Assembly: GCA_964507605.1 (NCBI GenBank) | Contig: CAZDQA010000003.1 | Location: 1-37,379, forward strand | From: an uncultured Pseudomonadales bacterium | GTDB lineage: Bacteria > Patescibacteriota > Microgenomatia > UBA1400 > CG1-02-47-37 | Direction: 5' to 3' | Length of the DNA: 37,379 bases | In this document: one piece after another, positions 1,617-34,210 of the stretch | Layout of the letters: every line of letters begins with the position of its first letter | Position numbering within the stretch: the stretch's first letter is position 1 | Program-made: the position numbers and the translations under genes | Notes under the pieces: generated by a model | What the model was told of the DNA's origin: nothing | The model's input: the letters and a program-made list of their open reading frames with translations, nothing else | The model's database searches: none

Positions 1617-1907
1617 ATGAAAGTGGACGTTCAATATTTGGCCAAGATTCTACAAATGACGGTGAAACCAACTGAAGCCAAACAGCTGCAGGCTGGCTTT
1701 GCCAAAACGATTGAAACAGTTAAACTCTTGAATCAACTCGACACCACCAATATCAGCCCTAACTTCCAGGTCAGTGGTCTGACCAATATTTTCCGGGAAG
1801 ATAAAATCGACAAGAAAAGAATTCTCACCCAAGCCCAGGCTTTAGCCAATGCCCAACATACTTATCAAGGCTACTTTGTCGTACCGGCCATTCTACATGA
1901 AACTTAA
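1617..1907 (+). CDS. gatC: Asp/Glu-tRNA amidotransferase subunit C
   Basis: 96-aa ORF directly upstream of and overlapping gatA. Size and position fit GatC, and the C-terminal FREDK...P is GatC-like. Confidence 0.8.
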   Translation: MKVDVQYLAKILQMTVKPTEAKQLQAGFAKTIETVKLLNQLDTTNISPNFQVSGLTNIFREDKIDKKRILTQAQALANAQHTYQGYFVVPAILHET

Positions 1908-3309
1908 TCAATTAAATCTCCACCAAGCTTTAGACGGCTTAAAGAACCAGCTCTTTTCTTCAAAAGAGTTAGTGAAAGCCTGCTTAGACCAAATTCAAGC
2001 CAAAGATAAGTATCTTCATGCTTTTTTAACTTTAAATGAAGCTGCTTTTGAACAGGCTCAAGCTGCTGATCAGGATAAAGCCGATAAACCTTTAAAAGGC
2101 ATTCCTTATGCTTTGAAAGATAACTTTTTAACTGCCGGGATCCGAACGACCGCTTCTGCCAAACTTCTGGATCAGTTTATCCCGCCTTATGAGTCAACCG
2201 TCTCTGCCCGGTTAAAAGCCGCCGGAGCAATCTGCTTGGGTAAAACCAACATGGATGCCTGGGCGCACGGCTCCTCGACCGAAACTTCCGATTATGGCCC
2301 GACTCATAATCCCTGGAACTTAAATTACTTGCCCGGCGGTTCTTCCGGCGGTTCAGCCGCCGCCGTCAGCGCGGACATGTGCACTTTTGCTATTGGCTCG
2401 GAAACTGCCGGTTCAATTCGCCAGCCGTCAGCCTGGTGCGGTATTACCGGCTTTAAACCCAGTTACGGTCGGGTTTCCCGCTATGGTTTGATTGCCATGA
2501 CTTCCTCGACCGACTCGCCCGGACCGATTACCAAAAACGTTTACGATGCCGCTTTAATTACCCAAGTGATTGCCGGCCGCGACCCTTATGATGCCACAAC
2601 CTCGCCTTTAGCGGTAGATATTAATGCCGCCAGCCTGCAAGGAACATCCTTGAAGGGTAAAAAAATTGCCGTTCCTAAAGAATACCTAGCCAATATTTCT
2701 CCTCAGGTAAAACAGTTAATTGAAACAGCTATTCAACAGTTAATTAAACTGGGAGCGGAACTGAAACCAATCACTTTGCTCGACCCCCAATACTCAATCG
2801 GGGTCTACACCATTGTCCAGCGCGCCGAAGTTTCTTCCAATCTGGCCCGCTTTGACGGTGTCCGCTATGGCCAAGACCGCTCGGCTTTTTCCCATGAAGC
2901 CAAGAACCGCTGTTTACTGGGCACTTACGCTCTTTCTTCCCGTTATCATGGCGCTGGCGAGTACTATAACCAAGCGCAAAAGGTGCGGGCTTTGATTGTT
3001 AAAGATTTTGCCAAATTATTTAAATCTTTTGATCTTTATTTAGGTCCCACCTCGCCGGGCCCGGCTTTAAAATTAGGCGCCAGCCAGGATAATCCGATGT
3101 TTGGCGAAATAGAAGACAGGCTGGTCGAAGCGGCCGCTATTGCCGGCTTAACCGGTATCAGTATTCCCTGCGGTTTGGTTAATGGTTTGCCGATTGGTCT
3201 GCAGTTAACCGGTCCTCAATTTTCTGAACAAAAAGTTTTAATTGCCGCCCATGCTTATCAAAAAGCAACTGATCATCATTTACTCAAACCAAATTTAAAC
3301 TATGACTAA
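1897..3309 (+). CDS. gatA: Asp/Glu-tRNA amidotransferase subunit A (amidase family)
   Basis: Amidase signature GGSSGGSAAAV and KDNF...G..TTA.S. I place the start at the internal Met (MKLNQLN..., 1897), which overlaps the gatC stop by 11 nt. The upstream 16 codons of the tracked ORF (1849) lie inside gatC. Confidence 0.9.
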   Translation: MKLNQLNLHQALDGLKNQLFSSKELVKACLDQIQAKDKYLHAFLTLNEAAFEQAQAADQDKADKPLKGIPYALKDNFLTAGIRTTASAKLLDQFIPPYESTVSARLKAAGAICLGKTNMDAWAHGSSTETSDYGPTHNPWNLNYLPGGSSGGSAAAVSADMCTFAIGSETAGSIRQPSAWCGITGFKPSYGRVSRYGLIAMTSSTDSPGPITKNVYDAALITQVIAGRDPYDATTSPLAVDINAASLQGTSLKGKKIAVPKEYLANISPQVKQLIETAIQQLIKLGAELKPITLLDPQYSIGVYTIVQRAEVSSNLARFDGVRYGQDRSAFSHEAKNRCLLGTYALSSRYHGAGEYYNQAQKVRALIVKDFAKLFKSFDLYLGPTSPGPALKLGASQDNPMFGEIEDRLVEAAAIAGLTGISIPCGLVNGLPIGLQLTGPQFSEQKVLIAAHAYQKATDHHLLKPNLNYD

Positions 3310-4621
3310 GCTATATCCGACTATCGGTCTGGAAATTCATGTTGAATTAAAGACTAAATCCAAGATGTTTTGTGGTTGTCCGGCTGAACATTTCCAGGTT
3401 AAACCCAACACTCATACCTGCCCGGTTTGTTTAGGTTTGCCCGGGGCTCTGCCTGTACCTAATCAAAAGGCGGTTGATTGGACTATTCTGACCGGCTTGG
3501 CTTTAAACTGCCGCATTAATCAGGAATCTACCTTTGACCGCAAGCACTACTTCTATCCTGATCTCCCCAAAGGCTTTCAGATTTCCCAGTTTGACGATCC
3601 TTTTTGTCAGCAGGGCTTTATCCAACTGGACTCCGGCAAAAAGATTCTCATTAACCGGGTCCACCTGGAAGAAGACACAGCCAAACTGATTCATAAGAAG
3701 ATCAAGGACAAAGATGTCACCTTAGTGGACTTTAACCGTTCCGGCGTGGCTTTAATGGAAATCGTTACCGAGCCTGATGTCGCTTCCGGAAATGAAGCCA
3801 AAGAATTTTTAAAGAAATTAAGGGACATACTCCGCCGTCTCCAGGTTTCTGACTGTGACATGGAAAAAGGTTCGATGAGGTTGGAAGCCAACATTTCTTT
3901 AACTTCTGACCCAAAACACTTGGCTGATTACAAAATCGAAGTGAAAAACTTAAACTCTTTTCGCTTTGTTGATCAGGCCATTAACTTTGAAATTGAGCGC
4001 CAAACTGTCCTCTTAAAGCAGGGGATTACTCCGGTCCAGGAAACCCGAGGCTATGATGATCTGAAAAAGCAGACCTTTTCCCAACGGATTAAAGAGGCGG
4101 CTGGGGACTACCGCTATTTTCCCGAACCGGATATCCCGCCGATCGCCTTGACAAAAGAATATGTTGAAAATTTAAGAAAGCTTCTGCCAAAATTGCCGGA
4201 AGCAGAAATAAATGAGTTGATTCAGCATTTTCACTTGAACATTTCCACGGCTCAATTATTGGTAAAAGACGCGGTAAAACTGGCTTATTTTAATAAATAC
4301 GTAAATAAAATCGAGCCGCAGACTTTAGCCAATTTAATTATCAACAAAAAGATTGATCTTGATAAACCGCCGCGGCTGAAAACTACTACTCAAACGCTTA
4401 ATCCCAAAATAATTGCTCAGGTCTTAAAAGAAAATGCGGATGTTGTCGCTAAATACAAGGCCGGCAAAACCTCGGTCATCGGCTTTCTCGTCGGCCAGGT
4501 AATGAAGCAGACACACGGCAAAGTTGACCCCCGCCAAGCCAAAGATCTTTTGTTGCAAGCCGTCAAGGTCCTCAACCTGCGAGGTCGGACCTCGCAGGGC
4601 TATTCTTCAAAATCTAAGTGA
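3302..4621 (+). CDS. gatB: Asp/Glu-tRNA amidotransferase subunit B; last ~15 codons run through a REP palindrome
   Basis: N-terminus PTIGLEIHVELKTKSKMFCGC and a C-terminal GatB/YqeY-like VIGFLVGQVMKQTHGKVDP. It overlaps the gatA stop (ATGACTAA). The tail NLRGRTSQGYSSKSK is encoded by the palindrome at 4576-4598 plus the antisense of the RAYT1 3' end. Confidence 0.9.
   Translation: MTKLYPTIGLEIHVELKTKSKMFCGCPAEHFQVKPNTHTCPVCLGLPGALPVPNQKAVDWTILTGLALNCRINQESTFDRKHYFYPDLPKGFQISQFDDPFCQQGFIQLDSGKKILINRVHLEEDTAKLIHKKIKDKDVTLVDFNRSGVALMEIVTEPDVASGNEAKEFLKKLRDILRRLQVSDCDMEKGSMRLEANISLTSDPKHLADYKIEVKNLNSFRFVDQAINFEIERQTVLLKQGITPVQETRGYDDLKKQTFSQRIKEAAGDYRYFPEPDIPPIALTKEYVENLRKLLPKLPEAEINELIQHFHLNISTAQLLVKDAVKLAYFNKYVNKIEPQTLANLIINKKIDLDKPPRLKTTTQTLNPKIIAQVLKENADVVAKYKAGKTSVIGFLVGQVMKQTHGKVDPRQAKDLLLQAVKVLNLRGRTSQGYSSKSK
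4576..4598. repeat. REP-like 23-nt palindrome, type 1, copy a (stop-proximal flank of RAYT1)
   Basis: CCTGCGAGGTC-G-GACCTCGCAGG, perfect 11-bp arms around one central base. It ends 1 nt before the RAYT1 stop codon (4600-4602) and lies inside the gatB 3' end. Confidence 0.9.
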
Positions 4622-5250
4622 ATTTCTTTAATTCTTAAAATATCAGTTTCGTCAACTTCCTCAACAAATTGTCGGTAAGATAATTGCTGATTTGTTTTAG
4701 AAAACAAACTCAAAATTTCTTCTGATTTCACCCAGGATTGATCGAATAACCTCAGATAATTTTGATAACTTGAGTACTTATAGCCTGCGAGGTCCGACCT
4801 CGCAGGCAAAATTGCTAATGGGTTGCGGTGGATATACTTTGATAAGTAGGTAAATTGCTCTTCGCTGGTTACCGCCACTGCCTTTAATTTTCCTTGAAAG
4901 ATTGGACCAACTCTTTTATATTTTGTATTAAAATATCGGGAATACTTGGACATCAAAGATCTCATAAAACTAGTAATAGATGTTAGTTTATCTTGGTAAA
5001 GCAAGAAGTGAAAATGGTTCGGCATCAAACAGTAAGATAATAAAACTACATCAGCAAAAAAATTATTTAGTTGTTTAGAAGGAGAAATAGATTTATCTAC
5101 AACTATGGGAGTTAAATAAAATTTTAAATAACTCAGAAAGGTTTTGTAATCTTTTTCATCAAAAAAAATATTCTCTTTGGCAACGCCGCGATTATAAAGA
5201 TGATAATAGCTTTGTGGAGAATACTCTTTTACTACATTTTTGCTGGGCAT
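4600..5250 (-). CDS. REP-associated tyrosine transposase-like protein (HUH/Y1, IS200-like fold), paralog 1
   Basis: 216 aa. HUH motif in CLMPNHFHFLL and catalytic-Tyr motif YIHRNP, followed by YKYSSY. It is flanked on both sides by the same palindrome. Clear paralog of 22642-23301. Confidence 0.85.
   Translation of the reverse strand: MPSKNVVKEYSPQSYYHLYNRGVAKENIFFDEKDYKTFLSYLKFYLTPIVVDKSISPSKQLNNFFADVVLLSYCLMPNHFHFLLYQDKLTSITSFMRSLMSKYSRYFNTKYKRVGPIFQGKLKAVAVTSEEQFTYLSKYIHRNPLAILPARSDLAGYKYSSYQNYLRLFDQSWVKSEEILSLFSKTNQQLSYRQFVEEVDETDILRIKEIHLDFEE
4784..4806. repeat. REP-like palindrome, type 1, copy b (inside the RAYT1 coding sequence, in frame)
   Basis: CCTGCGAGGTC-C-GACCTCGCAGG. The central base is complementary to that of copies a and c, so the orientation is opposite. 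On the coding strand it reads cct gcg agg tcg gac ctc gca gg = PARSDLAG. Confidence 0.9.
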
Positions 5251-5257
5251 TAAATAT

Positions 5258-5263
5258 ATTATA
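5258..5263 (-). promoter_or_regulatory. Candidate -10 box (TATAAT) for RAYT1, 7 nt upstream of its ATG
   Basis: The minus strand reads ...CCTCACAGG-G-TATAAT-ATATTTA-ATG. The palindrome occupies the spacer/-35 region. No SD is present. Confidence 0.45.
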
Positions 5264-5264
5264 C

Positions 5265-5287
5265 CCTGTGAGGTCGGACCTCGCAGG
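5265..5287. repeat. REP-like palindrome, type 1, copy c (start-proximal flank of RAYT1), one mismatch
   Basis: CCTGTGAGGTC-G-GACCTCGCAGG. One transition (C>T at 5269) turns one stem pair into G.T. Confidence 0.9.
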
Positions 5288-10827: not shown

Positions 10828-10900
10828 GGGCCGGTAGCTCAACGGTTAGAGCTTTTGCCTTTTAAGCAAAGTGTTCTGGGTTCGAATCCCAGCCGGCTCA
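10828..10900 (+). tRNA. tRNA-Lys(UUU)
   Basis: GGGCCGG-TA-GCTC-AACGGTTA-GAGC-T-TTTGC-CTTTTAA-GCAAA-GTGTT-CTGGG-TTCGAAT-CCCAG-CCGGCTC-A. Full cloverleaf with anticodon TTT. CCA is not encoded. Confidence 0.9.
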
Positions 10901-10912
10901 CGGGTTTTTTTT

Positions 10913-10984
10913 GGCCCCATAGTCTAGAGGTTAGGACATTGGGTTTTCATCCCAAAAACCAGGGTTCGATTCCCTGTGGGGTCA
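10913..10984 (+). tRNA. tRNA-Glu(UUC)
   Basis: GGCCCCA-TA-GTCT-AGAGGTTA-GGAC-A-TTGGG-TTTTCAT-CCCAA-AAAC-CAGGG-TTCGATT-CCCTG-TGGGGTC-A. Anticodon TTC. CCA is not encoded. Confidence 0.9.
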
Positions 10985-10989
10985 CAAAA

Positions 10990-11589
10990 ATGAAATTTTT
11001 AATACCAATCGGGTTTTTAATATTTATATCAGGTTTATACTTAGCTTTTCTCAAACACTCTGATATTTGGTATAGCGTTTTTCTAATAGGCGGTTTTTTA
11101 CTCCTTGAGGGAGTAAATTTCAAAAAAGGATCCTCTGTACTGAAAAACAGAAAATGGTTTTTGCTGACGTGGTTAATATTTATAGCCATAACGATTGTTG
11201 TTGAAATTATCGGTAATTATTGGTTGAACCTTTGGGATTATCCAACTTTTGATAAAGTTGATTACTTGATCCACGTGATTGTTATAGGTTATCCATTAAC
11301 TGGTTTCTTTGGTTTAGAATTTTTTATTTTACTGCAAAAAATTTTTACTTCGCGAAAAACCCAGATAATCATCCTGCCTATATCTGCTTTCCTTTTTGGT
11401 TATCTTAATGAATATCCGAATATTTTTGCCTACGAATGGAAATATATTAACTGGCCATTCGCTGAATTTCTGGGAATTCCGATTTTGGTATCGCTTTTAT
11501 GGATTCTGTTGTTGATTGTTATTTTCTTTAAGAAGCCTTTTGAATTCAGAAAAGTCAGCCTGCGAGGAGTCTCCTCGCAGGTAATCTAA
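10990..11589 (+). CDS. Hypothetical polytopic membrane protein (visibly AT-rich gene); C-terminus runs through a REP-variant palindrome
   Basis: The start is moved to the Met at 10990 (MKFLIPIGF...) because the tracked 5' extension (10855) is the tRNA-Lys/Glu sequence. About 6 hydrophobic segments. No family recognised. The tail SLRGVSSQVI is encoded by the palindrome at 11559-11581. Confidence 0.6.
   Translation: MKFLIPIGFLIFISGLYLAFLKHSDIWYSVFLIGGFLLLEGVNFKKGSSVLKNRKWFLLTWLIFIAITIVVEIIGNYWLNLWDYPTFDKVDYLIHVIVIGYPLTGFFGLEFFILLQKIFTSRKTQIIILPISAFLFGYLNEYPNIFAYEWKYINWPFAEFLGIPILVSLLWILLLIVIFFKKPFEFRKVSLRGVSSQVI
11559..11581. repeat. REP-like palindrome, variant type (compensatory inner stem), orphan copy
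   Basis: CCTGCGAGGAG-T-CTCCTCGCAGG, perfect 11-bp arms. The outer 9 bp are identical to type 1. The inner two pairs are swapped on both arms (TC/GA to AG/CT). Confidence 0.9.
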
Positions 11590-12188
11590 AGGCTTAGTTT
11601 CAACCTGGCGCCGGAAAGATTGGCCTGCTCGCCAGTGGTGGACTTCAGTTCAATGACATAAGTATTAGTCCCGTTGTGCAGTTTAAATGCGGGCGAACTT
11701 TTCCAGGTGGCAATATTGGAATTGTTAAATATTTCCGTCACCTGCATAATCGCTCCGCTGGTTTTGTTTTTCAGTCTCGCCCAGGCTTCGCCGTTGACAA
11801 TTGATAGTTGCGCTTCAAACACCGCCTTCACCTCAGCCGGATAATCACTGCTGTTCAGCTGGATGGCCGCGCCGGTTTCCGTCCATTCGGTCTTAGTAGT
11901 CGTCGCCGAGCCCAAATAAATATTCTGGGGCTGCCAGCTAGAACTAGGGGTAATCACAGGAGAAGTTATCACTGCCGGACTGGAACTGGGAATTAGGCTG
12001 GGACTGGGGCTGACACTGCTGGGGACCAAACTCGGGCTGGGGATTATGCTGGCTTCAGGCACAAGACTTTGACTGGTAATAAATAAATCCAAGCTTTCCG
12101 TCAATTGTTTTTGCTTAACCCATAAACCAATCACGCTTAAACCTAAAACTACCAAGCCCGTAATCACCACAATCTTAAAGCGATCCAT
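11586..12188 (-). CDS. Hypothetical membrane-anchored protein with a Ser/Pro-rich linker and a C-terminal beta-rich domain
   Basis: 200 aa. An N-terminal TM helix (IVVITGLVVLGLSVIGLWV), then a low-complexity SPSPSL[VI]PSS repeat linker (nt about 11937-12059), then a ~115-aa domain. No family recognised. Confidence 0.55.
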   Translation of the reverse strand: MDRFKIVVITGLVVLGLSVIGLWVKQKQLTESLDLFITSQSLVPEASIIPSPSLVPSSVSPSPSLIPSSSPAVITSPVITPSSSWQPQNIYLGSATTTKTEWTETGAAIQLNSSDYPAEVKAVFEAQLSIVNGEAWARLKNKTSGAIMQVTEIFNNSNIATWKSSPAFKLHNGTNTYVIELKSTTGEQANLSGARLKLSL

Positions 12189-12195
12189 AAACTGC

Positions 12196-12201
12196 TATAA
12201 T
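12196..12201 (+). promoter_or_regulatory. Candidate -10 box (TATAAT) 6 nt upstream of the ATG at 12208
   Basis: TATAAT-CTTATC-ATG in a 19-nt divergent intergenic gap. No SD. The -35 is weak (TCTTAA). Confidence 0.35.
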
Positions 12202-12207
12202 CTTATC

Positions 12208-13071
12208 ATGAATCCGCTTAAATATGTTTTAATGCTTTTCACTTATCTATGGTTAAGGTTCGACCTGATTCTGTACATAACTTTTAGAAAAGACTGGACG
12301 CCCCGTTATGAATTTCTCGCCAGTATTTTTGGTGAAGACGATGCCGAAAAGTTTTTAGCCCATCGCGTCAATCTTGTTAAAGCCAGAAATAAAATTTTAC
12401 CTCCAATAATTCTTTTAACTGATGTTGACAAAAAAATCACTGAATTTTTAACAATTAAACCTTCCACTAAACTCAATAAAACCCAGCGTCTGGCAATTAT
12501 CGATCAGCTGATCTTTTGGGCAGTTGACCCGGAAATTAACCGCTTCAACATCGACAGTTACCAGTCACGGTCAGCCATTGTTGACGGTTTATTAAATCCT
12601 ATCTTCCAGAACAGTTTAATCAGTGAAATTAACTTCATCCTGGACGGTCTTAAAAAAATTGTTTTTTCCCGGGTAACCTATCTTGGCAGTAAAGGCGAAC
12701 CTTCACCGGTTGTTCATAATGTCATTCTTTCCGGCGCCGCCCGGATATTAACTTCTCACTTTAACGAACTGGTCAGATTAAGGGATGAAAAACTGGACAA
12801 ATTAACCAAAGTTAAGTTGATTAAAGAAATCAATCAAGCCAAAGGCGAAACCGGGTCGCTGGCTTTTTCCGCCGATCCCAAGGTTGATGAAGACTTTCAA
12901 AATAAATTTCCGCTGCCCCGGTACCAAGCCAAGCTTTTATGGAAGATTTTAACCCATTACCGGTTTTCCGCTTGGCCTGAATCAAGAGAAAAAGCAGCAA
13001 GGCTCATTAACAACTTCCATAAACAACTGGGCTTTTCCCCGGAAGAACTATTTGCCTTAAACAAAAAATAA
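12208..13071 (+). CDS. Hypothetical protein, first gene of the atp transcription unit
   Basis: 287-aa ORF with one N-terminal hydrophobic helix and no motif I recognise. It ends 17 nt before atpB on the same strand. Confidence 0.5.
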   Translation: MNPLKYVLMLFTYLWLRFDLILYITFRKDWTPRYEFLASIFGEDDAEKFLAHRVNLVKARNKILPPIILLTDVDKKITEFLTIKPSTKLNKTQRLAIIDQLIFWAVDPEINRFNIDSYQSRSAIVDGLLNPIFQNSLISEINFILDGLKKIVFSRVTYLGSKGEPSPVVHNVILSGAARILTSHFNELVRLRDEKLDKLTKVKLIKEINQAKGETGSLAFSADPKVDEDFQNKFPLPRYQAKLLWKILTHYRFSAWPESREKAARLINNFHKQLGFSPEELFALNKK

Positions 13072-21586: not shown

Positions 21587-22645
21587 ATGGCAGATAATCT
21601 TGACCCCGCTAATTTATACCAATCAATTGTTGACCTGACCAAACAATGCCAGCATGCTTTCAAGCAGGCTAACCAAGTTAAAGTTGCTCCTCAACCTGTC
21701 AAGCAGTTAATTATCTCCGGCATGGGCGGCTCGATTCTGGCCGCTCAGGTAATTGAATCGCTTTACGGTCTTCAACTGAGCGTTCCCTTAACCAAAATCA
21801 GTGATTACCATTTGCCGGTTTGGGCCAATCAGGACAGTTTAGTGATTTGTTCCAGTTATTCCGGTACCACTGAAGAAACTGTTCAGACGCTCAAAGAAGC
21901 CCTGGCTAAAAACTGTCAAATTATTGTTATCTGCGGCGGGGGAGAGCTGGAAACTTTGGCTTTAAGCAACCACTTGCCTTTGTATAAAATTAACCCGGTT
22001 TATAATCCCTGCCGCCAGCCGCGCATGGCCATTGGTTACTCTCTAATTGGCCAGCTGGTCCTGGTCGCCAAAGCCGGTTTATTAAAGTTCGACCAACCTG
22101 ACATACAGTTAATTCAAACCGCCATGGCCCAAGTGGTCAAAGCTAACCACCGGGATATGCCTGTCGAAAACAACCCTGCCAAAAAACTGGCCCAGGAGTT
22201 TCATTCCCGGCAGGTGATTATGGTTGCCGCCGAGCACCTGGCCGGCGCCTTCCATGTTGTCAAAAACCAGATGAATGAGAACGCTAAGCAATTATCCCAC
22301 CGCCACGACCTGCCTGAACTTAACCACCACCTGCTCGAAGGTTTGCGCTTTCCTGAATCTAATCGAAAAGATGTAGCTTTCTGGGTAATTAACTCTAAGC
22401 TCTATTCTCCCAGGCTCCAAACCCGCGTCCGTCTAACCATTGATGTTATCCGGAAAAATAAAATTAAGGCTTTTGAATTTACCCCTTCCGCTGACACTAA
22501 ACTGGCCCAGGTTTTCGAGCTGATCCAATTTGGCAGCTTCGTCAACTACTATATGGCTATGCTCAACCATCTCAATCCTGCCCTGATCCCCTGGGTCAAC
22601 TACTTCAAAAAACACCTGCAGGATCCGACCCTGCAGGCAATCTAA
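21587..22645 (+). CDS. Bifunctional phosphoglucose/phosphomannose isomerase-type SIS domain protein; C-terminus runs through a type-2 palindrome
   Basis: 352 aa. SIS motif ISGMGGS and SYSGTTEET. Size and pattern fit the PGI/PMI family. The tail HLQDPTLQAI is encoded by 22615-22637. Confidence 0.75.
   Translation: MADNLDPANLYQSIVDLTKQCQHAFKQANQVKVAPQPVKQLIISGMGGSILAAQVIESLYGLQLSVPLTKISDYHLPVWANQDSLVICSSYSGTTEETVQTLKEALAKNCQIIVICGGGELETLALSNHLPLYKINPVYNPCRQPRMAIGYSLIGQLVLVAKAGLLKFDQPDIQLIQTAMAQVVKANHRDMPVENNPAKKLAQEFHSRQVIMVAAEHLAGAFHVVKNQMNENAKQLSHRHDLPELNHHLLEGLRFPESNRKDVAFWVINSKLYSPRLQTRVRLTIDVIRKNKIKAFEFTPSADTKLAQVFELIQFGSFVNYYMAMLNHLNPALIPWVNYFKKHLQDPTLQAI
22615..22637. repeat. REP-like 23-nt palindrome, type 2, copy a (stop-proximal flank of RAYT2)
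   Basis: CCTGCAGG-ATC-C-GAC-CCTGCAGG. An 8-bp outer stem, an inner A.C mismatch, then 2 more pairs. It ends 4 nt before the RAYT2 stop (22642-22644). Confidence 0.9.
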
Positions 22646-23301
22646 TCATCAATATCCAAGACTTGGCCTTTAATTCTCAAAATATCCGACTCATCAACTT
22701 CTTCGACAAACTCCTTATAAGATCTTGCCGGTTTTGTCCGGTTAAAATAACTCAAAATGTCCTCGGTTTCTACCCAAGGTTGATTAAACAACCCCAGGTA
22801 ATTCTGATAGCTCGAATACTTATACTCCTCCAAACCTGCAGGGTCGGATCCTGCAGGTAGGGGATTACGATGAATGTATTTAGATAAATATAAAAACTGT
22901 TCTTCTGATTCCACCTCAACCGCCTTGTATTTTCCCTGAAATACCGGCCCCACCCGTTTATATCTCTTATTAAAATACATCGAATATTTGGTCAGCAGTG
23001 ATTTTAAAAAAAGCGGAATGCCAAAAACATCTTTCTGAAACAACAATAAATGAAAATGGTTGGGCATTAAACAATAACAATGTAAAAAAGCTTGTTGGAA
23101 AAAATTCTTCAACTGCTTCGTTGGGGGCACCTGCAGGATCCGACCCTGCAGGTCCTTGGAAGCTAAATATAGCTTTAAATATCCAATAAAAACCTTATAA
23201 TCCTGCTTATCTAAAAAAATTTGCTGTTTAGCTACGCCGCGATTATAAATATGGTAAAACCCGTTTTCTTTATACTCGCGGACTGTATTTTTGCAGGGCA
23301 T
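22642..23301 (-). CDS. REP-associated tyrosine transposase-like protein (HUH/Y1), paralog 2
   Basis: HUH motif in CLMPNHFHLLL and YIHRNP followed by YKYSSY. Collinear with paralog 1 and roughly 55-65% identical by eye. The start is set at the Met at 23301 (MPCKNTVREY, matching MPSKNVVKEY of paralog 1). The tracked 21-codon extension to 23364 reads through the upstream palindrome. Confidence 0.85.
   Translation of the reverse strand: MPCKNTVREYKENGFYHIYNRGVAKQQIFLDKQDYKVFIGYLKLYLASKDLQGRILQVPPTKQLKNFFQQAFLHCYCLMPNHFHLLLFQKDVFGIPLFLKSLLTKYSMYFNKRYKRVGPVFQGKYKAVEVESEEQFLYLSKYIHRNPLPAGSDPAGLEEYKYSSYQNYLGLFNQPWVETEDILSYFNRTKPARSYKEFVEEVDESDILRIKGQVLDIDD
22835..22857. repeat. REP-like palindrome, type 2, copy b (in frame inside RAYT2, inverted relative to the flanks)
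   Basis: CCTGCAGGGTCGGATCCTGCAGG is the exact reverse complement of copy a. The coding strand reads cct gca gga tcc gac cct gca gg = PAGSDPAG. Confidence 0.9.
23130..23152. repeat. REP-like palindrome, type 2, copy c (second in-frame copy inside RAYT2)
   Basis: Identical to copy a (CCTGCAGGATCCGACCCTGCAGG). The coding strand reads ctg cag ggt cgg atc ctg cag g = LQGRILQ(V). Confidence 0.9.
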
Positions 23302-23313
23302 AACCATTCTCAT

Positions 23314-23336
23314 CCTACAGGATCCGACCCTGCAGG
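23314..23336. repeat. REP-like palindrome, type 2, copy d (start-proximal flank of RAYT2), one mismatch
   Basis: CCTACAGGATCCGACCCTGCAGG. One transition (G>A at 23317) in the outer stem. It lies 12 nt upstream of the RAYT2 ATG. Confidence 0.9.
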
Positions 23337-23370
23337 TGCAATGATTGAAATTTTTTGTTATCATTAGTTA

Positions 23371-25665
23371 ATGCCCGATTCACTGCCCATGATCGTTGAT
23401 TTTAAACAAGTTGGTAAAAACGACGTAGGCCTAGTCGGCGGCAAAGGTGCCAATCTCGGCGAAATGGTCCGCGCTGGTTTTCCTGTCCCTCCAGGTTTTA
23501 TCGTTACCGCCGCCGCTTACTATCATGTTGTCGAGTTAAACAACTTAAAGCCAAAAATCAAACCCATTCTCCATGATTTAGACATTCACGATATCCACTC
23601 TCTCAACCAAGTTTCCCAAAGAATTAAAGCTTTAATCTCCCGCGCTAACATCCCCAACCAACTGGCCCTGGATATTATTGAACGCTATTTAAAGCTAGGC
23701 TCCGGCCATAATCAAACTTTAGTCGCCGTCAGGTCCTCGGCTACAGCCGAAGACCTGCCCGACGCTTCCTTCGCCGGCCAGCAGGAAACCTTTCTCAATG
23801 TCCAAGGAGAAGCTAACTTGATTCAAAACATCCGCGCTTGCTGGGCTTCGCTTTTCGAACCCCGGGCGATTTTCTACCGCCAGGAAAAAAACTTCGACCA
23901 CTTCAAAGTCGGCATTGCCGTTCCGGTCCAAAAAATGATTCAAAGTCATGTTTCCGGCATTATGTTTACCGTCAATCCCGTCACTAACAATAAAAATCAA
24001 CTGGTGATCGAGGCAATCTGGGGTTTAGGTGAAAAAATTGTTCAGGGTGCTTACACTCCCGATCATTATTTAATTCAAAAACTCTCCTGGAAAATCCTCC
24101 AAAAACAAACTAATCAGCAAACCAAACAGTTGATTTATTCTAAAGATAGAAATCGCGAATTAAAACTGCCTAAAAACAAACAACGCCAAACCAAGCTAAC
24201 CGATGAGCAAATTATTTTCTTAGCCAAGCTGGGCCATAAAATCCAACAGCATTATTTCTTTCCCCAAGATATCGAATGGGCTTTGGCTGACAATCAATTT
24301 TACCTAGTTCAATCCCGGCCGATTACCACTCTCAACGTCCAAGAGACTAAAACTACACCCATTTCCACCAATAAACTAACCCTGCTTTTAAAAGGCGAAG
24401 CCGCCAGTCCGGGAATAATTACCGGTTATACCAGAATCTTAAAATCATCCAAAGAAATCAACCAGTTGTCCCAGGGAGAAATCTTGGTTACCGATATGAC
24501 CACGCCTGATTTTGTCCCGGCCATGAAAAAAGCCGCCGCCATTGTCACCAATAAAGGCGGTCAAACTTCCCACGCCGCCATTGTCTCCCGGGAACTGGGC
24601 ATTCCTTGTATTGTCGGCACCGCCACAGCCACCCAGGTTTTAAAAACCCGCACCGTAGTCACTGTCAATGGTCAGACCGGAGAAATATTCCGTGGCGGCA
24701 CTATTCTTAAACCAAAAAAAATCTCTGTAGAAAAAATTACCAAAATTCCTGCCAAAGACTTAAAGCCGGACACTATCACTACCGCTACCAAACTCTATGT
24801 TAATTTAGGTGAACCGGACCTGGCCGAAATCATCGGTCAAAAAAACGTTGACGGCCTGGGCTTGCTTCGGGCTGAATTTATGATTGCTCAAATCGGCACC
24901 CATCCTAAAAAAATGATTGCCGACCATAAAGAAGCTCAGTTTATCACCAGTTTAACTGAAAATTTAGCTAAATTTGCCAAAGCTTTTTACCCCCGGCCGG
25001 TAGTTTATCGGGCTACTGACTTTAAAACCAACGAATACTCTAATCTGATTGGCGGCAAGGCCTTTGAACCCCAAGAACCAAACCCCATGCTTGGCTTCCG
25101 CGGCGCCTTTCGCTACTTAACTGATGAAAAAGTCTTTGCCTTGGAACTTTATGCCTTAAAAAATGTCCGGGAAAAACTTGGGTTTAAAAACCTGTGGCTG
25201 ATGATTCCCTTTGTCAGGACAGTTAAAGAGATGGAATTAGTCAAAAAAATTGTTTCCAGTTACGGTTTGATCCGCTCCGCTTCTTTTAAACTCTGGATGA
25301 TGGTGGAAATTCCCGCCAACGTCCTGCTTTTGGAAGAATTTATCAAAGTTGGTATCGACGGAGTTTCTATCGGCTCCAATGACTTAACTATGCTGACTTT
25401 GGGAGTTGACCGGGATAATAGCGAAGTGGCTTCCGAATATGACGAGCTTAATCCGGCAGTTTTATCTTTAATCGAAACTACGATCAAAACCTGTCGGAAA
25501 AATAAAATTACCTGCTCCATCTGCGGCCAAGCCCCTTCTCTCTATCCTGATCTGACTGAAAAGCTGGTCCAATGGGGAATTACCAGTATTTCTGTCACTC
25601 CGGACATGATTGACCAGACCAGAAACATTATTTATCAGGCTGAAAAGCGTTTAATCAATGGCTAA
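23371..25665 (+). CDS. ppsA: Phosphoenolpyruvate synthase (pyruvate, water dikinase)
   Basis: 764 aa. An N-terminal ATP-grasp PEP/pyruvate-binding domain (VGGKGANLGEM), the phospho-His swivel GGQTSHAAIVSRELGIPCIVG and a C-terminal PEP-utilising TIM barrel (IGSNDLTM). The size fits PpsA rather than PPDK. Confidence 0.85.
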   Translation: MPDSLPMIVDFKQVGKNDVGLVGGKGANLGEMVRAGFPVPPGFIVTAAAYYHVVELNNLKPKIKPILHDLDIHDIHSLNQVSQRIKALISRANIPNQLALDIIERYLKLGSGHNQTLVAVRSSATAEDLPDASFAGQQETFLNVQGEANLIQNIRACWASLFEPRAIFYRQEKNFDHFKVGIAVPVQKMIQSHVSGIMFTVNPVTNNKNQLVIEAIWGLGEKIVQGAYTPDHYLIQKLSWKILQKQTNQQTKQLIYSKDRNRELKLPKNKQRQTKLTDEQIIFLAKLGHKIQQHYFFPQDIEWALADNQFYLVQSRPITTLNVQETKTTPISTNKLTLLLKGEAASPGIITGYTRILKSSKEINQLSQGEILVTDMTTPDFVPAMKKAAAIVTNKGGQTSHAAIVSRELGIPCIVGTATATQVLKTRTVVTVNGQTGEIFRGGTILKPKKISVEKITKIPAKDLKPDTITTATKLYVNLGEPDLAEIIGQKNVDGLGLLRAEFMIAQIGTHPKKMIADHKEAQFITSLTENLAKFAKAFYPRPVVYRATDFKTNEYSNLIGGKAFEPQEPNPMLGFRGAFRYLTDEKVFALELYALKNVREKLGFKNLWLMIPFVRTVKEMELVKKIVSSYGLIRSASFKLWMMVEIPANVLLLEEFIKVGIDGVSIGSNDLTMLTLGVDRDNSEVASEYDELNPAVLSLIETTIKTCRKNKITCSICGQAPSLYPDLTEKLVQWGITSISVTPDMIDQTRNIIYQAEKRLING

Positions 25666-28545: not shown

Positions 28546-30537
28546 ATGGATTTAACCAGTCTATTTTCGCCCCGATCCATTGCCTTAATCGGCGCCTCTG
28601 CCAACCAAAAAAAAATCGGCTTCCAAATTCTAGCCAAACTTCTTCAAACCAAATTGCCGGTTTTCCCCATCAACCCCCATGAATCTAAAATTTTAAACAC
28701 CCAGGCTTATCCTTCTATTCATGACGTGCCTGGTCCTGTTGATTTGGCAATTGTGGCCGTACCCGCCCCGATCGTCAACTTAGTTGTTCAGCAAGCCGGT
28801 GAAAAAAAAGTTAAATCTGTCGTGGTTATTTCCGCTGGTTTTTCTGAATCCGGCCCTGAAGGAAAAAAGCTGGAAGATAATTTAAAAAAAATCTGTCAAA
28901 CATACCAACTTAATCTTCTTGGTCCCAATGTTTTGGGTTTTGCCAATCCGAAAAAGAAATTAGACATTACTTTTGCCAAAACCGCCCCTCCAGCCGGCAA
29001 TATTGGTTTAATCTCTCAGTCAGGGGCCATCGGTTCATATCTTTTTGACTGGGCTAAGTCCGAGAGCCTCGGGTTCTCTAAATTTGTTTCTTTAGGCAAC
29101 CGCGCCGGCTTAACGGAAACTGACTTCTTAACTTATCTGGCCGCTGATCCCAATACCAAAGTTATCGGCTTGTACTTAGAATCATTTGCTGATGGTCAAA
29201 AGTTTTTGTCAGTTGCCAGTCAACTGGCTCGAAAAAAACCAGTGGTGGCGATTTTCGGCGGCCAAACCCAAGCCGGTAAGCAAGCCGCCTTCAGCCATAC
29301 GGCAGCCTTAAGTCCCCAAACAGCAGTGATTGAAACCGCTTTAAATCAGGCGGGCTGCATCCAGGCGCCTGACTTAGAAGCCTTTAGTGACCTGCTCGAG
29401 ATTTTTTCTTTAGAACCGCCCCTGACCGATAATGACTTGGTGATCGTTACCAATGCCGGCGGTCCGGGAATTTTAGCCGCTGACAAGGCCGACGAGGTCC
29501 GCTTAAAAGTGGAGCGGCCGACTGATGTTCGGGGCGACGCTTTGGCAGAGCAGTTCAACACGGCTTTCCAACAAGTGATTAAAGATAAGATTAAAGACGC
29601 TTTTTTAATTATTCTTACTCCACAAACTATGACTCAGCTGGAACTAACCTGTCAGGCAGTAGTGAAACAATTTAAACACATTAAAAAACCAATAGTCGTT
29701 TCTTTGTTAGGCGGAGAAATCACCGCTAAGGCTAAGGAGATTTTAAGAAAAAACCACATTGCTACTATCGACTTTCCCCAAAAGGCCGTTAACTACTTAA
29801 GCATTCTTTTCCAATATTGGCATAATCGTCTAAAGCAAACTACTTATCCGATAAGACAAAGCTCACTTATTAAAGCTTCCCCCCTCAACCTTCAACCAGG
29901 CCGGCAAACTTGGCAGCAAATTAAAACCTTAGCTAAAACTTATCATTTGCCTTTAGTCACCACTAAAATTGTTAAAGAAAATACCCTACTTCAATTAATT
30001 AAAGAGATTGGTTTCCCCTTAGTTTTAAAAGCTGATCCAACCGAAGCTTTGCATCGAACTGAAAAGAAAGCCTTGTTCCTTAATTTGAATTCTATTCAGG
30101 CCGTTAAAAAACACTTTAATCAATTAAAGTCACAGTTTAAAACCATTCTGATTCAGCCGCAAATCCTGGCAGGACACGAACTGTTTCTGGGTTTAAAACG
30201 CCATCCCGGCTTCCCCCCTTTATTAACCATTGGTTCCGGCGGGATTTACACAGAAATTTATCAGGATGTCGCCCATACTTTTTTACCTGTCAATAAAACC
30301 TCCGTCTTAAAACTATTAGCGCAAACCAAGCTCGGCCAGATCCTGCTGGGCACCCGGGGACTGGCGCCTACTAACGTCCGCCAGGTTATTGATTTAATTT
30401 TGAATGTTTCTCAATTAGCTCTGAACTTTCCCCAAATCGATGAAATTAACATTAACCCGGCCATTATTAATCAATCCAAAATAGACATTGTCGACATCAA
30501 AATCACAGCCTGCGAGGTCCGACCTCGCAGGCCCTAA
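28546..30537 (+). CDS. Acetate--CoA ligase (ADP-forming), fused alpha/beta type; last 9 codons run through a type-1 palindrome
   Basis: 663 aa. An N-terminal CoA-binding/succinyl-CoA-ligase-like part (SIALIGAS, GPN.LG, ISQSGA) and a C-terminal ATP-grasp part. The tail ACEVRPRRP is encoded by 30509-30531. Confidence 0.8.
   Translation: MDLTSLFSPRSIALIGASANQKKIGFQILAKLLQTKLPVFPINPHESKILNTQAYPSIHDVPGPVDLAIVAVPAPIVNLVVQQAGEKKVKSVVVISAGFSESGPEGKKLEDNLKKICQTYQLNLLGPNVLGFANPKKKLDITFAKTAPPAGNIGLISQSGAIGSYLFDWAKSESLGFSKFVSLGNRAGLTETDFLTYLAADPNTKVIGLYLESFADGQKFLSVASQLARKKPVVAIFGGQTQAGKQAAFSHTAALSPQTAVIETALNQAGCIQAPDLEAFSDLLEIFSLEPPLTDNDLVIVTNAGGPGILAADKADEVRLKVERPTDVRGDALAEQFNTAFQQVIKDKIKDAFLIILTPQTMTQLELTCQAVVKQFKHIKKPIVVSLLGGEITAKAKEILRKNHIATIDFPQKAVNYLSILFQYWHNRLKQTTYPIRQSSLIKASPLNLQPGRQTWQQIKTLAKTYHLPLVTTKIVKENTLLQLIKEIGFPLVLKADPTEALHRTEKKALFLNLNSIQAVKKHFNQLKSQFKTILIQPQILAGHELFLGLKRHPGFPPLLTIGSGGIYTEIYQDVAHTFLPVNKTSVLKLLAQTKLGQILLGTRGLAPTNVRQVIDLILNVSQLALNFPQIDEININPAIINQSKIDIVDIKITACEVRPRRP
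30509..30531. repeat. REP-like palindrome, type 1, copy d (at the ACD / rsmI convergent junction)
   Basis: CCTGCGAGGTC-C-GACCTCGCAGG, perfect and identical to copy b. It lies about 25 kb from RAYT1. Confidence 0.9.
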
Positions 30538-32776: not shown

Positions 32777-33600
32777 CAAAGCGAACGACTAAAATAAACC
32801 CTACCTGGTGTCCCGGCTGCGGCAACTTTGGCATTCTCGGCGCCCTTAAACTCGCCCTGGACCAGCTCAATATTTTACCACATCAGCTGGCCTGTGTTTA
32901 TGACATCGGCTGTTCCGGCAACATGGCTGATTTTACTTATGCCTATGGCTTCCACAGCCTCCATGGCCGGGCCCTGCCGGTCGCCGCCGGCATTAAACTG
33001 GCCAATCCTAAAATTCCGGTCATTGCCATTATCGGCGACGGCGGCTGTTTTGGCGAAGGCCTGGGCCATTTTATTTCCCTGGCGCGGGGCAACCATGACA
33101 TTGTTGTCTTAAACCACAACAACTATCGCTACAGCTTGACTACCGGCCAAATGTCTCCCACCACCAAAAAGGGGACTGTTACCCCCAGCACCCCCGCCGG
33201 TTCAATTGAAGAAGCTTTTAATCCGCTGGCCAACGCCATTATTAATCACGCTACCTTTGCCGCCCGCGGCTTTAGCGGCAACATTCCTCACTTATCTGCC
33301 TTAATTGTCAGCGCCATTAAACACCCTGGCTTCTCCTTTATCGACATTCTCCAGCCCTGCGTCACTTATAACAAAACCATGTCTTATGATTGGTTTAGAA
33401 ACCGCCTTTACCAGCTTGAGCAAACCGAGCATGATCCTGCCAATAAAACCGCAGCTTTGCAAAAAGCCTTAGAAATCGACCGTCTGCCAATTGGAATTTT
33501 CTACCAAGCTAACAAACCCACTTACCACGAACAAGTTTTACCGCCAATCTCCACCACTTTAGCCGAAGCTGATATTTCCTCCCTTAATTTGCCGAGTTGA
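32773..33600 (+). CDS. 2-oxoacid:ferredoxin oxidoreductase, beta (TPP-binding) subunit
   Basis: 275 aa. WCPGCGNFGI Cys motif and IIGDGGCFGEG TPP-binding motif. Overlaps the alpha stop by 4 nt. Confidence 0.85.
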   Translation: MTKRTTKINPTWCPGCGNFGILGALKLALDQLNILPHQLACVYDIGCSGNMADFTYAYGFHSLHGRALPVAAGIKLANPKIPVIAIIGDGGCFGEGLGHFISLARGNHDIVVLNHNNYRYSLTTGQMSPTTKKGTVTPSTPAGSIEEAFNPLANAIINHATFAARGFSGNIPHLSALIVSAIKHPGFSFIDILQPCVTYNKTMSYDWFRNRLYQLEQTEHDPANKTAALQKALEIDRLPIGIFYQANKPTYHEQVLPPISTTLAEADISSLNLPS

Positions 33601-34210
33601 ACTTTCTGATTACCCCGACTACTTTGCCTTGGACTTTGACATTAGTGGCGTAAATCGGGCTCATATTGGAATTCGCCGGTTCCAACCTGATCCGGGTCGC
33701 TTCTTTAAAAAACCGCTTTAAGGTCGCCAGTCCATTTTCCAATAACGCCACCACAATATCGCCGTTAACCGCTTCCTGTTCTTCTTCCACCACCACATAA
33801 TCGCCGTCCAAAATGCCTTCGTCAATCATTGATTCGCCTTTGACCTGGAGCACGAACGAACGTTTTTTCCCGCTGACCATCTGCGGCGAAACGCTGAAGC
33901 TGGCATTCGGATCAGTGTACGGCTCAATCGGTTTGCCGGCCGCAATGTAACCCAAAATCGGCAAAGTTAAACCGGCGCTGTCATCTGAATACCGAGGATC
34001 GGCAATCTCCAAACCCCGCACCGCTCCTTCATATTTTTTCAACACTCCTTTCCTGACTAAAGTGGCAATATGTTCATGCACTGTTGCCAAAGAAGACAGG
34101 CTCATCGAAGTGGCAATTTCCTGTAAAGTCGGGGAGTGCCCGTGCGATTGAATATATTGACTGACAAAATCGATTAATTGTTTTTGGCGTTTATAAAGTG
34201 TTACGGGCAT
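33584..34210 (-). CDS. lexA: LexA repressor
   Basis: 208 aa. An N-terminal winged HTH (SPTLQEIA), the cleavage region (YIAAG), Ser in GESM and Lys in ATLKRF. Confidence 0.9.
   Translation of the reverse strand: MPVTLYKRQKQLIDFVSQYIQSHGHSPTLQEIATSMSLSSLATVHEHIATLVRKGVLKKYEGAVRGLEIADPRYSDDSAGLTLPILGYIAAGKPIEPYTDPNASFSVSPQMVSGKKRSFVLQVKGESMIDEGILDGDYVVVEEEQEAVNGDIVVALLENGLATLKRFFKEATRIRLEPANSNMSPIYATNVKVQGKVVGVIRKFNSAN

Follow-up and report, generated by a model that had tools for sequence, protein, structure and literature searches.

Two short cassettes in a contig of 37,379 nt (GenBank CAZDQA010000003.1, the whole of which is called the window here) each join a gene for a Y1/HUH transposase-like protein to several copies of a hairpin-forming palindrome of its own type. 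All the copies of such a locus change together across about 80 related genomes, which shows with unusual clarity an enzyme and its DNA target that evolve as a single unit. We consider it probable, with a chance of about two in three, that each cassette resembles the systems formed by a REP-associated tyrosine transposase (RAYT) and its repetitive extragenic palindromes (REPs): a gene from a Patescibacteria-specific branch of the class-2 Y1/HUH proteins together with its cognate palindrome, the enzyme acting on its own hairpin. This reading draws on the anatomy of the cassettes and its conservation, on covariation within the stems, on the concerted change of the copies, on their residence at fixed junctions and on the fold of the protein. 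Among domesticated transposases that co-evolve with a population of short repeats, RAYT/REP systems are the foremost example. The window comes from a Patescibacterium and is rich in genes and low in GC; the homologues of its proteins carry the labels Candidatus Beckwithbacteria or Patescibacteria, and the host is Beckwithbacteria-like. For comparison we used 80 loci from GTDB genomes of the Microgenomates (Beckwith-, Collier-, Roizman-, Woese- and Gottesmanbacteria, and others); the source genome itself is absent from the GTDB representatives searched, among which the best match had 64% identity. A protein search for relatives of the two open reading frames (ORFs) found more than 3000, and peptides were compared in the best 120 of them.

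The components of the two cassettes are the following.

4576-4598, no strand: 3'-flank hairpin of cassette 1 (type 1, CCTGCGAGGTCSGACCTCGCAGG, centre G), 1 nt past the stop codon of ORF1 and within the last codons of gatB
4600-5250, minus strand: ORF1, RAYT-like Y1/HUH protein of 216 residues, with the Y1_Tnp domain and its motifs
4784-4806, minus strand: site B of cassette 1, in-frame hairpin encoding PARSDLAG, centre C on the plus strand
5258-5263, minus strand: -10 box of cassette 1, a perfect TATAAT, separated by 1 nt from the 5' hairpin and by 7 nt from the ATG
5265-5287, no strand: 5'-flank hairpin of cassette 1, one mismatch, 14 nt upstream of the ATG
22615-22637, no strand: 3'-flank hairpin of cassette 2 (type 2, CCTGCAGGATCCGACCCTGCAGG), 4 nt past the stop codon of ORF2
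22642-23301, minus strand: ORF2, RAYT-like Y1/HUH protein of 219 residues, with NHFH (HUH motif) and YIHRNP (catalytic tyrosine motif)
22835-22857, minus strand: site B of cassette 2, in-frame hairpin directly after YIHRNP, encoding PAGSDPAG
23130-23152, minus strand: site A of cassette 2, in-frame hairpin in the loop before the HUH strand, encoding (D)LQGRILQ(V)
23306-23311, minus strand: weak -10-like hexamer GAGAAT of cassette 2, between the 5' hairpin and the ATG, degenerate with respect to TG-TATAAT
23314-23336, no strand: 5'-flank hairpin of cassette 2 (CCTACAGG...CCTGCAGG), one mismatch, 12 nt upstream of the ATG

The pattern common to these hairpins, CCTGC-N13-GCAGG with at most one mismatch, occurs 11 times in the window against 0.79 expected, and none of 100 shuffled sequences reached 11. 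A first-pass annotation of the window had described both palindrome types, and every copy that it listed is present, as are its spacings of 1 and 4 nt from stop codon to hairpin and of 14 and 12 nt from hairpin to ATG. It had allowed each cassette a single conserved internal copy. Cassette 2 has two, both in frame, and in ORF1 site A has decayed and shows no palindrome. In cassette 2 the central 7 nt of site B are inverted relative to the other three copies; the arrangement proposed for both cassettes, with flanks in one orientation and the internal copy inverted, varies among loci, and a relative with 96% protein identity carries a non-inverted site B. The flanking hairpins have a second role as the final codons of gatB and pgi, just beyond the Pfam domains of the two proteins; on the plus strand 22615-22637 encodes the final residues of phosphoglucose isomerase (PGI), HLQDPTLQAI, and on the minus strand the same hairpin is followed by TTTTTTGAAG, a T-run. 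ORF2 begins with the ATG at 23301, in line with its homologues, all of which start with MP.KN; the mechanically called start at 23364 reads through the 5' hairpin. The suggestion that the unit reaches about 20 nt past the start-proximal hairpin was not borne out: the ATGATTG on which it leaned is not kept in relatives of 86-96% identity, and the TTGAAA falls on a promoter-like -35 of dnaE, a divergent gene.

Cassette 2 is unbroken in contigs of four independent public runs and is therefore not an assembly artefact; in these assembled contigs (as opposed to reads) neither excision nor alternative joints of it were found. When the window was compared with Rfam no family matched the hairpins, the only matches being two tRNAs. 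An exact scan for the type-2 hairpin in metagenome contigs of the Joint Genome Institute gave one match, in a GC-rich gene for a major facilitator superfamily transporter of an unrelated organism, which was taken as chance.

Across the 80 related loci the hairpins occupy four fixed places, seen in nearly all of them. The 5' copy lies at about -40 to -15, just upstream of the -10 box; site A, at about +150, is read in frame as part of the loop that precedes the HUH strand; site B, at about +460, is in frame directly after YxxxNP; and the 3' copy, 0-4 nt past the stop codon, is at the same time the tail end of the housekeeping gene that converges on this one. The 5' flank copy was present in 73 loci and the 3' copy in 65. 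The elements are GC-rich, near-perfect palindromes of 23-25 nt with the conserved frame CCTNCARGG-N5-CCYTGNAGG, and in the 23-mer the pair at positions 4/20 varies between G:C, T:A and A:T. Among the best 120 relatives, the peptide after H.NP reads as a translated palindrome (PARSDLAG, PTRTDLVG, PSGTDLDG, PAGSEPAG), and DLQG.TLKV precedes the HUH strand in many of them. Pairing at site B extends to 90% of the cells, and 10 of the 12 pairs show double-sided changes, a level of covariation that 0 of 500 shuffles reached, slid controls being paired in 28-52%. The coding function leaves its own mark at site A: the A:T pair that would make an in-frame TAG occurs in 0 of 53 cases, A.A standing in its place, while it occurs 36 times at the other three sites. 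Site A has been lost in ORF1 and in many homologues while the gene was kept. As a side observation, five relatives (P0051, P0061, P0067, P0077 and P0093) carry one to three extra LEG repeats after site B (as in DLEGLEGLEG), which are tandem 9-nt duplications of the 3' arm of the hairpin.

The copies of one locus resemble each other far more than they resemble those of other loci, with a mean distance of 1.8 of 23 nt within loci against 8.6 between them. For the internal copies, the nearest flank hairpin was that of their own locus in 87 of 107 cases. Hairpin distance falls as protein identity rises (Spearman rho -0.59, 3160 pairs), in agreement with the co-divergence of protein and palindrome that the first-pass annotation had proposed. 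One and the same non-Watson-Crick pair recurs in at least three copies in 16 of 62 loci, and in cassette 2 a G.T pair is present in all four; such shared identical imperfections argue for copying rather than for independent selection on pairing. Close relatives catch the switch under way. Three relatives of cassette 2 with 96, 88 and 85% protein identity, all at the ppsA|pgi junction, were compared: in the nearest (locus L085) site B is flipped back through three synonymous changes and the flanks are partly switched; in the second all four copies have A:T for G:C at pair 4/20, and site A has AAG for TAG; in the third the G.T pair has become T:A in all four copies. Relatives of cassette 1 show the same joint switching. 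Each cassette of the window keeps to its own type, neither holding the palindrome of the other, as had been stated. Between paralogues of the same genome, which are at most 78% identical (median 58%), only 1 of 53 pairs shares a hairpin type; in these loci the result agrees with one REP type per paralogue, the relation that had been proposed for checking.

The two proteins are collinear paralogues on the same strand, as described before; the strand is the minus strand, and their identity is 60%. Both exceed the Pfam gathering score of 23 for Y1_Tnp (35.4 and 29.8 bits), and both have NHFH and YIHRNP, which are invariant in 115 homologues. YxxxNP is the tyrosine motif of class 2, the RAYT type, in the classification of Quentin et al. 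2018 (PMC6006769). For ORF2 an AlphaFold2 model, built with the 115 homologues, reached a predicted local distance difference test score (pLDDT) of 86.8, and its top Foldseek match in the PDB was 4er8_A, the Escherichia coli TnpA-REP bound to a REP hairpin (E 1.1e-6, template modelling score 0.67 on the target), followed by the TnpA proteins of ISDra2 and IS608. Sites A and B fall in loops of lower confidence in this model, with a pLDDT of about 62 in the region of site A. A profile sequence search of the PDB gave nothing usable, and the fold search alone was informative. No tnpB gene is present in the window.

The cassettes are not recently mobile and show no hopping of the kind known for insertion sequences (ISs); they sit in conserved slots with occasional replacement of the whole allele. 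The description of the cassette as a duplicated or mobile unit is at odds with the same junctions being filled in many genomes and with the divergence of the paralogues within each genome. The pgi|ppsA junction holds a RAYT in at least 15 other genomes, including some with ppsA only 57-72% identical, and the gatB|dnaE junction holds one in four. The proposed synteny comparison at these junctions thus found the slots filled in many genomes; an empty pgi|ppsA junction was found in locus L029 (18540-18620), where no hairpin is left and the stop codon of pgi overlaps the start of ppsA. It may be mentioned that the conserved PGI tail YFK (TTCAAGG) resembles a hairpin arm. Identity between RAYTs at the same junction (53-66%) is no higher than between those at other junctions (50-57%), and the simple vertical descent of one allele was rejected on the ground that RAYTs at a shared junction are no more alike than elsewhere.

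The closest relative, L023, shows what an exchange may look like. Its ppsA and pgi are 92 and 76% identical to those of the window, and the slot between them (11690-12300) holds a RAYT only 54% identical to ORF2, with another hairpin type. Nucleotide identity to the window falls sharply at the cassette edges and, together with the difference between 76-92% for the neighbours and 54% for the RAYT, this points to allele replacement. That copy is a remnant: everything 5' of site A has been deleted, the deletion end coincides exactly with the site A hairpin copy, and the rest of the reading frame is intact. In other syntenic pairs the RAYTs are more alike than the flanking genes; fast evolution alone therefore does not describe the family, in which one allele now and then replaces another.

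Copies of the hairpins are also found away from the cassettes. Three of them lie in the window.

30509-30531, no strand: lone type-1 hairpin between convergent genes, within the last codons of an ADP-forming acetyl-CoA-synthetase-like ORF
11559-11581, no strand: hairpin of a third type (CCTGCGAGGAGTCTCCTCGCAGG), standing alone at a junction of convergent genes
2634-2656, plus strand: decayed hairpin of a fourth type (CCTGCAAGGAACATCCTTGAAGG), in frame in gatA (1849-3309), encoding SLQGTSLKG

An RsmI-like methylase gene has its stop codon 10 nt from the first of these. The third type also flanks the intact RAYT of the closest relative, L023, and the fourth is the type of the pgi|ppsA remnant of that same relative. 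The first-pass annotation had called the palindromes private to their cassettes; the type-1 copy at 30509, and the other types in the window and in the related loci, some of them within housekeeping genes, make that word too strong. In 1.06 Mb of related loci the strict pattern found 25 hairpins outside cassettes against 0 in a reversed control, and counts of lone copies in this sequence ranged from 25 to 39. The recommended search by pattern, followed by clustering of the hits by type, was run on these related loci: 15 of the 25 are of the type of a RAYT within 10 kb, and others match the types of paralogues or of other genomes. Lone copies stand mostly at gene 3' ends or at convergent junctions; of 42 copies, 20 are situated within long ORFs and read in frame there, the two frames used being those of the copies inside the RAYT gene.

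Two such in-frame positions are conserved as slots. In GatA the window and the orthologue of L008 carry different hairpin types at the same position, where the orthologue of L002 and the solved GatA structures have no hairpin, with a net change of one codon; to judge from this alignment, the gatA hairpin looks like an overwriting of an existing segment, not an insertion. The second slot outside RAYT genes is in orthologous proteins of about 650-660 residues, where the hairpins of L035 (8799-8823) and L037 (836-860), both in frame, share one codon position and differ in type, encoding YLQGLSLKV and HLQGENLKV.

Near the lone third-type hairpin, two tRNA genes on the plus strand (10828-10900 and 10913-10984; 71 and 69 bits with the Rfam tRNA family) overlap the 5' part of the mechanically called ORF 10855-11589. 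This ORF, which has no Pfam match, is at least partly spurious, and the hairpin at 11559 may lie downstream of a shorter gene. Within the coding region of ppsA, next to cassette 2, 23730-23757 forms a hairpin with a 13-bp stem, CAGGTCCTCGGCTACAGCCGAAGACCTG, the sequence of which is unrelated to that of the cassette hairpins. Elsewhere in the window, the translation alone of the minus-strand ORF 33584-34210 resembles a LexA-type repressor (N-terminal winged-helix-like and C-terminal S24-peptidase-like parts). In the related locus L088 a LAGLIDADG homing-endonuclease ORF (3028-3453) stands 2 kb from the RAYT cassette, beside about 1.9 kb with no called genes, and this region may be an intron in an rRNA gene.

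Controls have a -10 box (at least five of six matches within 22 nt of the ATG) in 11.5% of cases and the loci of the family in 54 of 82, with TG-TATAAT as the consensus. From the end of the box to the ATG the distance is 6-7 nt in 40 of these 54, and in 21 loci the box begins 2 nt (the TG) after the hairpin. No Shine-Dalgarno sequence is present ahead of the ATG, which makes a leaderless transcript likely for cassette 1. The simplest reading of this arrangement is probably a leaderless transcript with the hairpin in place of the -35 and spacer. Two roles at the RNA level were considered and rejected. For the 3' hairpin as a general intrinsic terminator, T-runs follow it in 4 of 65 loci, which is the background (4%); for a structure in the transcript, G.T pairs show no excess over A.C on the sense strand (49 vs 39, p = 0.34).

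If the cassettes are RAYT/REP-like, the enzyme would bind its own hairpin extruded on single-stranded DNA and would nick and rejoin at the foot of the hairpin. Copying and pasting, or strand exchange at the foot, would then keep all the copies of a type alike, and a new variant could sweep through the four copies of the gene. The same process might occasionally overwrite hairpin-like stretches elsewhere and might delete the DNA between two copies, and the promoter-proximal copy would probably make the gene self-regulating. Several observations weigh against this interpretation. The foot of the hairpin lacks a GT[AG]G guide, and no tetranucleotide is conserved outside the stem; the hairpins are nearly symmetric, unlike canonical REPs. 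The NCBIfam equivalog for RAYT, NF047646, gives 37.3 and 35.2 bits, below its cutoff of 80, in a match limited to profile positions 48-136 of 146. The designation RAYT-like thus stands as far as the Y1/HUH domain, the YxxxNP motif and the fold closest to 4er8 are concerned, and lacks the guide and the family score. Lone copies are sparse, about one per 26-42 kb, and classical REP systems have hundreds of copies. The identities of RAYTs at the same junction fit vertical residence and repeated targeted insertion alike. Furthermore, we infer the enzymatic activity, the copying mechanism and the regulation from these patterns, and the copies could be kept alike with no enzyme involved, through ordinary recombination or through template switching from repeat to repeat.

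This last point leads to the possibility, which we regard as unlikely, that the hairpins are cis-elements of the host, acting in 3'-end or mRNA stability, as promoter insulators or as protein sites, and kept uniform by general recombination or template switching, the Y1 protein being passive. The preference of lone copies for gene 3' ends and convergent junctions would suit such elements, as would the T-run after the 3' copy of cassette 2; the loop flips are a product expected of arm-to-arm recombination in any palindrome, and a low copy number requires no transposase. It should be noted, however, that the hairpin type tracks the paralogue, one type for each and in correlation with protein identity, and that most of the strict lone copies have the type of a RAYT within 10 kb. 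T-runs after the 3' hairpin are at background over the family, the lack of a G.T over A.C sense bias counts against a role in RNA only, and four fixed copies in one gene family would be unexpected for generic terminators.

It is rather improbable, in our judgement, that the internal and promoter hairpins serve mainly for self-control, the protein binding or cutting its own gene or transcript so as to limit its expression or to self-destruct, with selection, not copying, matching the sites. The 5' hairpin that takes the place of the -35 at 2 nt from the -10 box in 21 loci, the conserved positions of sites A and B across the family, and the inactivation of the L023 remnant by a deletion that ends exactly at site A all agree with this idea. 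On the other hand, identical imperfections in three or four copies point to copying, and the stop-avoiding A.A pair has spread to the non-coding copies (A.A 61 vs T.T 12); moreover, ORF1 and many homologues have kept the gene without site A, and the wobble pairs have no strand bias. As for ordinary IS200-type elements, with tnpA alone, subterminal hairpins and transposing units of about 720 bp, the explanation is largely refuted and very improbable. The size of 710-720 bp, the single Y1_Tnp gene with hairpins at both ends, the fold matches to the TnpA proteins of ISDra2 and IS608 and the empty pgi|ppsA site of L029 speak for it. Against it stand the class-2 motif YxxxNP in place of the YxxxQ of IS200 (PMC6006769), the absence of near-identical copies in any genome, the junctions filled across genomes with diverged ppsA, the symmetry of the hairpins and their identity at the two ends and within the gene, the lack of tnpB in the window, and a best fold match to TnpA-REP.

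Returning to the RAYT/REP-like interpretation, one extension of it concerns the place of the target. With the hairpin encoded in two surface loops of the enzyme, and all copies rewritten jointly, each switch of target would also rewrite the enzyme, so that target and enzyme would be physically coupled; in housekeeping genes this machinery may likewise write over coding segments that already exist, rather than insert into them. We hold this to be quite unlikely; if true, the coupling might add to specificity, or it might be a self-targeting switch that drives the turnover of alleles at fixed slots. In any case the family offers a compact natural experiment: each gene has four copies of the target, two of which are constrained by coding, the types number in the dozens, and close relatives show intermediates. 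Through this family REP/RAYT biology reaches the Patescibacteria, also known as the candidate phyla radiation (CPR), in which reduced genomes of about 1 Mb still hold several paralogues, and it presents conserved in-frame hairpin slots in essential genes such as that of GatA. Natural cognate and non-cognate pairs from one genome allow simple biochemical tests of specificity.

The closest known systems are the REPtrons, RAYT or TnpA-REP genes flanked by cognate REPs, which are well known and were reportedly described by Nunvar in 2010, Bertels and Rainey in 2011 and Ton-Hoang in 2012 (structure 4ER8). The Patescibacteria family shares with them a class-2 Y1/HUH protein with YxxxNP and the TnpA-REP fold, a short GC-rich palindrome on both sides of the gene with a type of its own for each paralogue, a low gene copy number with no identical duplicates and long residence, and additional palindromes at gene 3' ends. 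It differs in its almost perfect palindromes without GT[AG]G, in having probably tens rather than hundreds of copies per genome, with no REPIN doublets seen, in the two fixed in-frame copies within the gene and the hairpin that abuts the -10 box, in a score under the cutoff of the NCBIfam RAYT family, and in its hosts, which are Patescibacteria whose genomes, about 1 Mb in size, have up to four or more paralogues. Our search of the literature found no paper on RAYTs in Patescibacteria or the CPR.

In-frame REPs inside tnpA-REP have been described as a "unique feature" of the TnpA-Y1 subclass 2.4 of Cyanobacteria and Bacteroidetes, which has the motifs NH[IFV]H, WQ and YIxNNP, in-frame REP insertions of variable length between HuH and Y, and "long" or "double foot" REPs with GT[AG]G (PMC6006769). 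As in that subclass, the cognate palindromes lie within the transposase gene, leave the frame unbroken and are modelled in peripheral loops. In contrast, the motifs of the Patescibacteria family are NHFH, FQ, YIHRNP and SS, its sites are fixed family-wide before HuH and right after YxxxNP, and site B adds no length with respect to the family norm. The motifs are closer to those of subclass 2.1 (TIRYT-like), which has NH[YF]H, FQ and Y[IV]HLNP, an SS tail, a C-terminal helix-turn-helix-like domain and no REPs (PMC6006769), yet in the Patescibacteria family hairpins are present. IS200 elements are alike in the unit of about 0.7 kb, the single Y1_Tnp gene, the hairpins near both ends and the hairpin beside the gene start, and unlike in having YxxxQ, asymmetric ends, many identical copies and no conserved chromosomal slot.

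The in-frame copies in other genes recall the Rickettsia palindromic elements (RPEs), which Ogata is said to have described in 2000. In both cases palindromes lie in frame within housekeeping genes, here in conserved slots of GatA and of the protein of about 650 residues. RPEs, however, measure 100-150 bp and have no linked transposase, whereas the Patescibacteria elements have 23 nt and add at most one codon, and the content of a slot changes with the hairpin type that the genome currently carries. In-frame REPs in genes other than that of the transposase are also known (Di Nocera 2013, PMC3733652). In-gene REPs having been known already from 2018, what is new here is the combination of in-gene sites fixed across the whole family, a hairpin that abuts the promoter, the lack of GT[AG]G, a probably low copy number and a host from another phylum.

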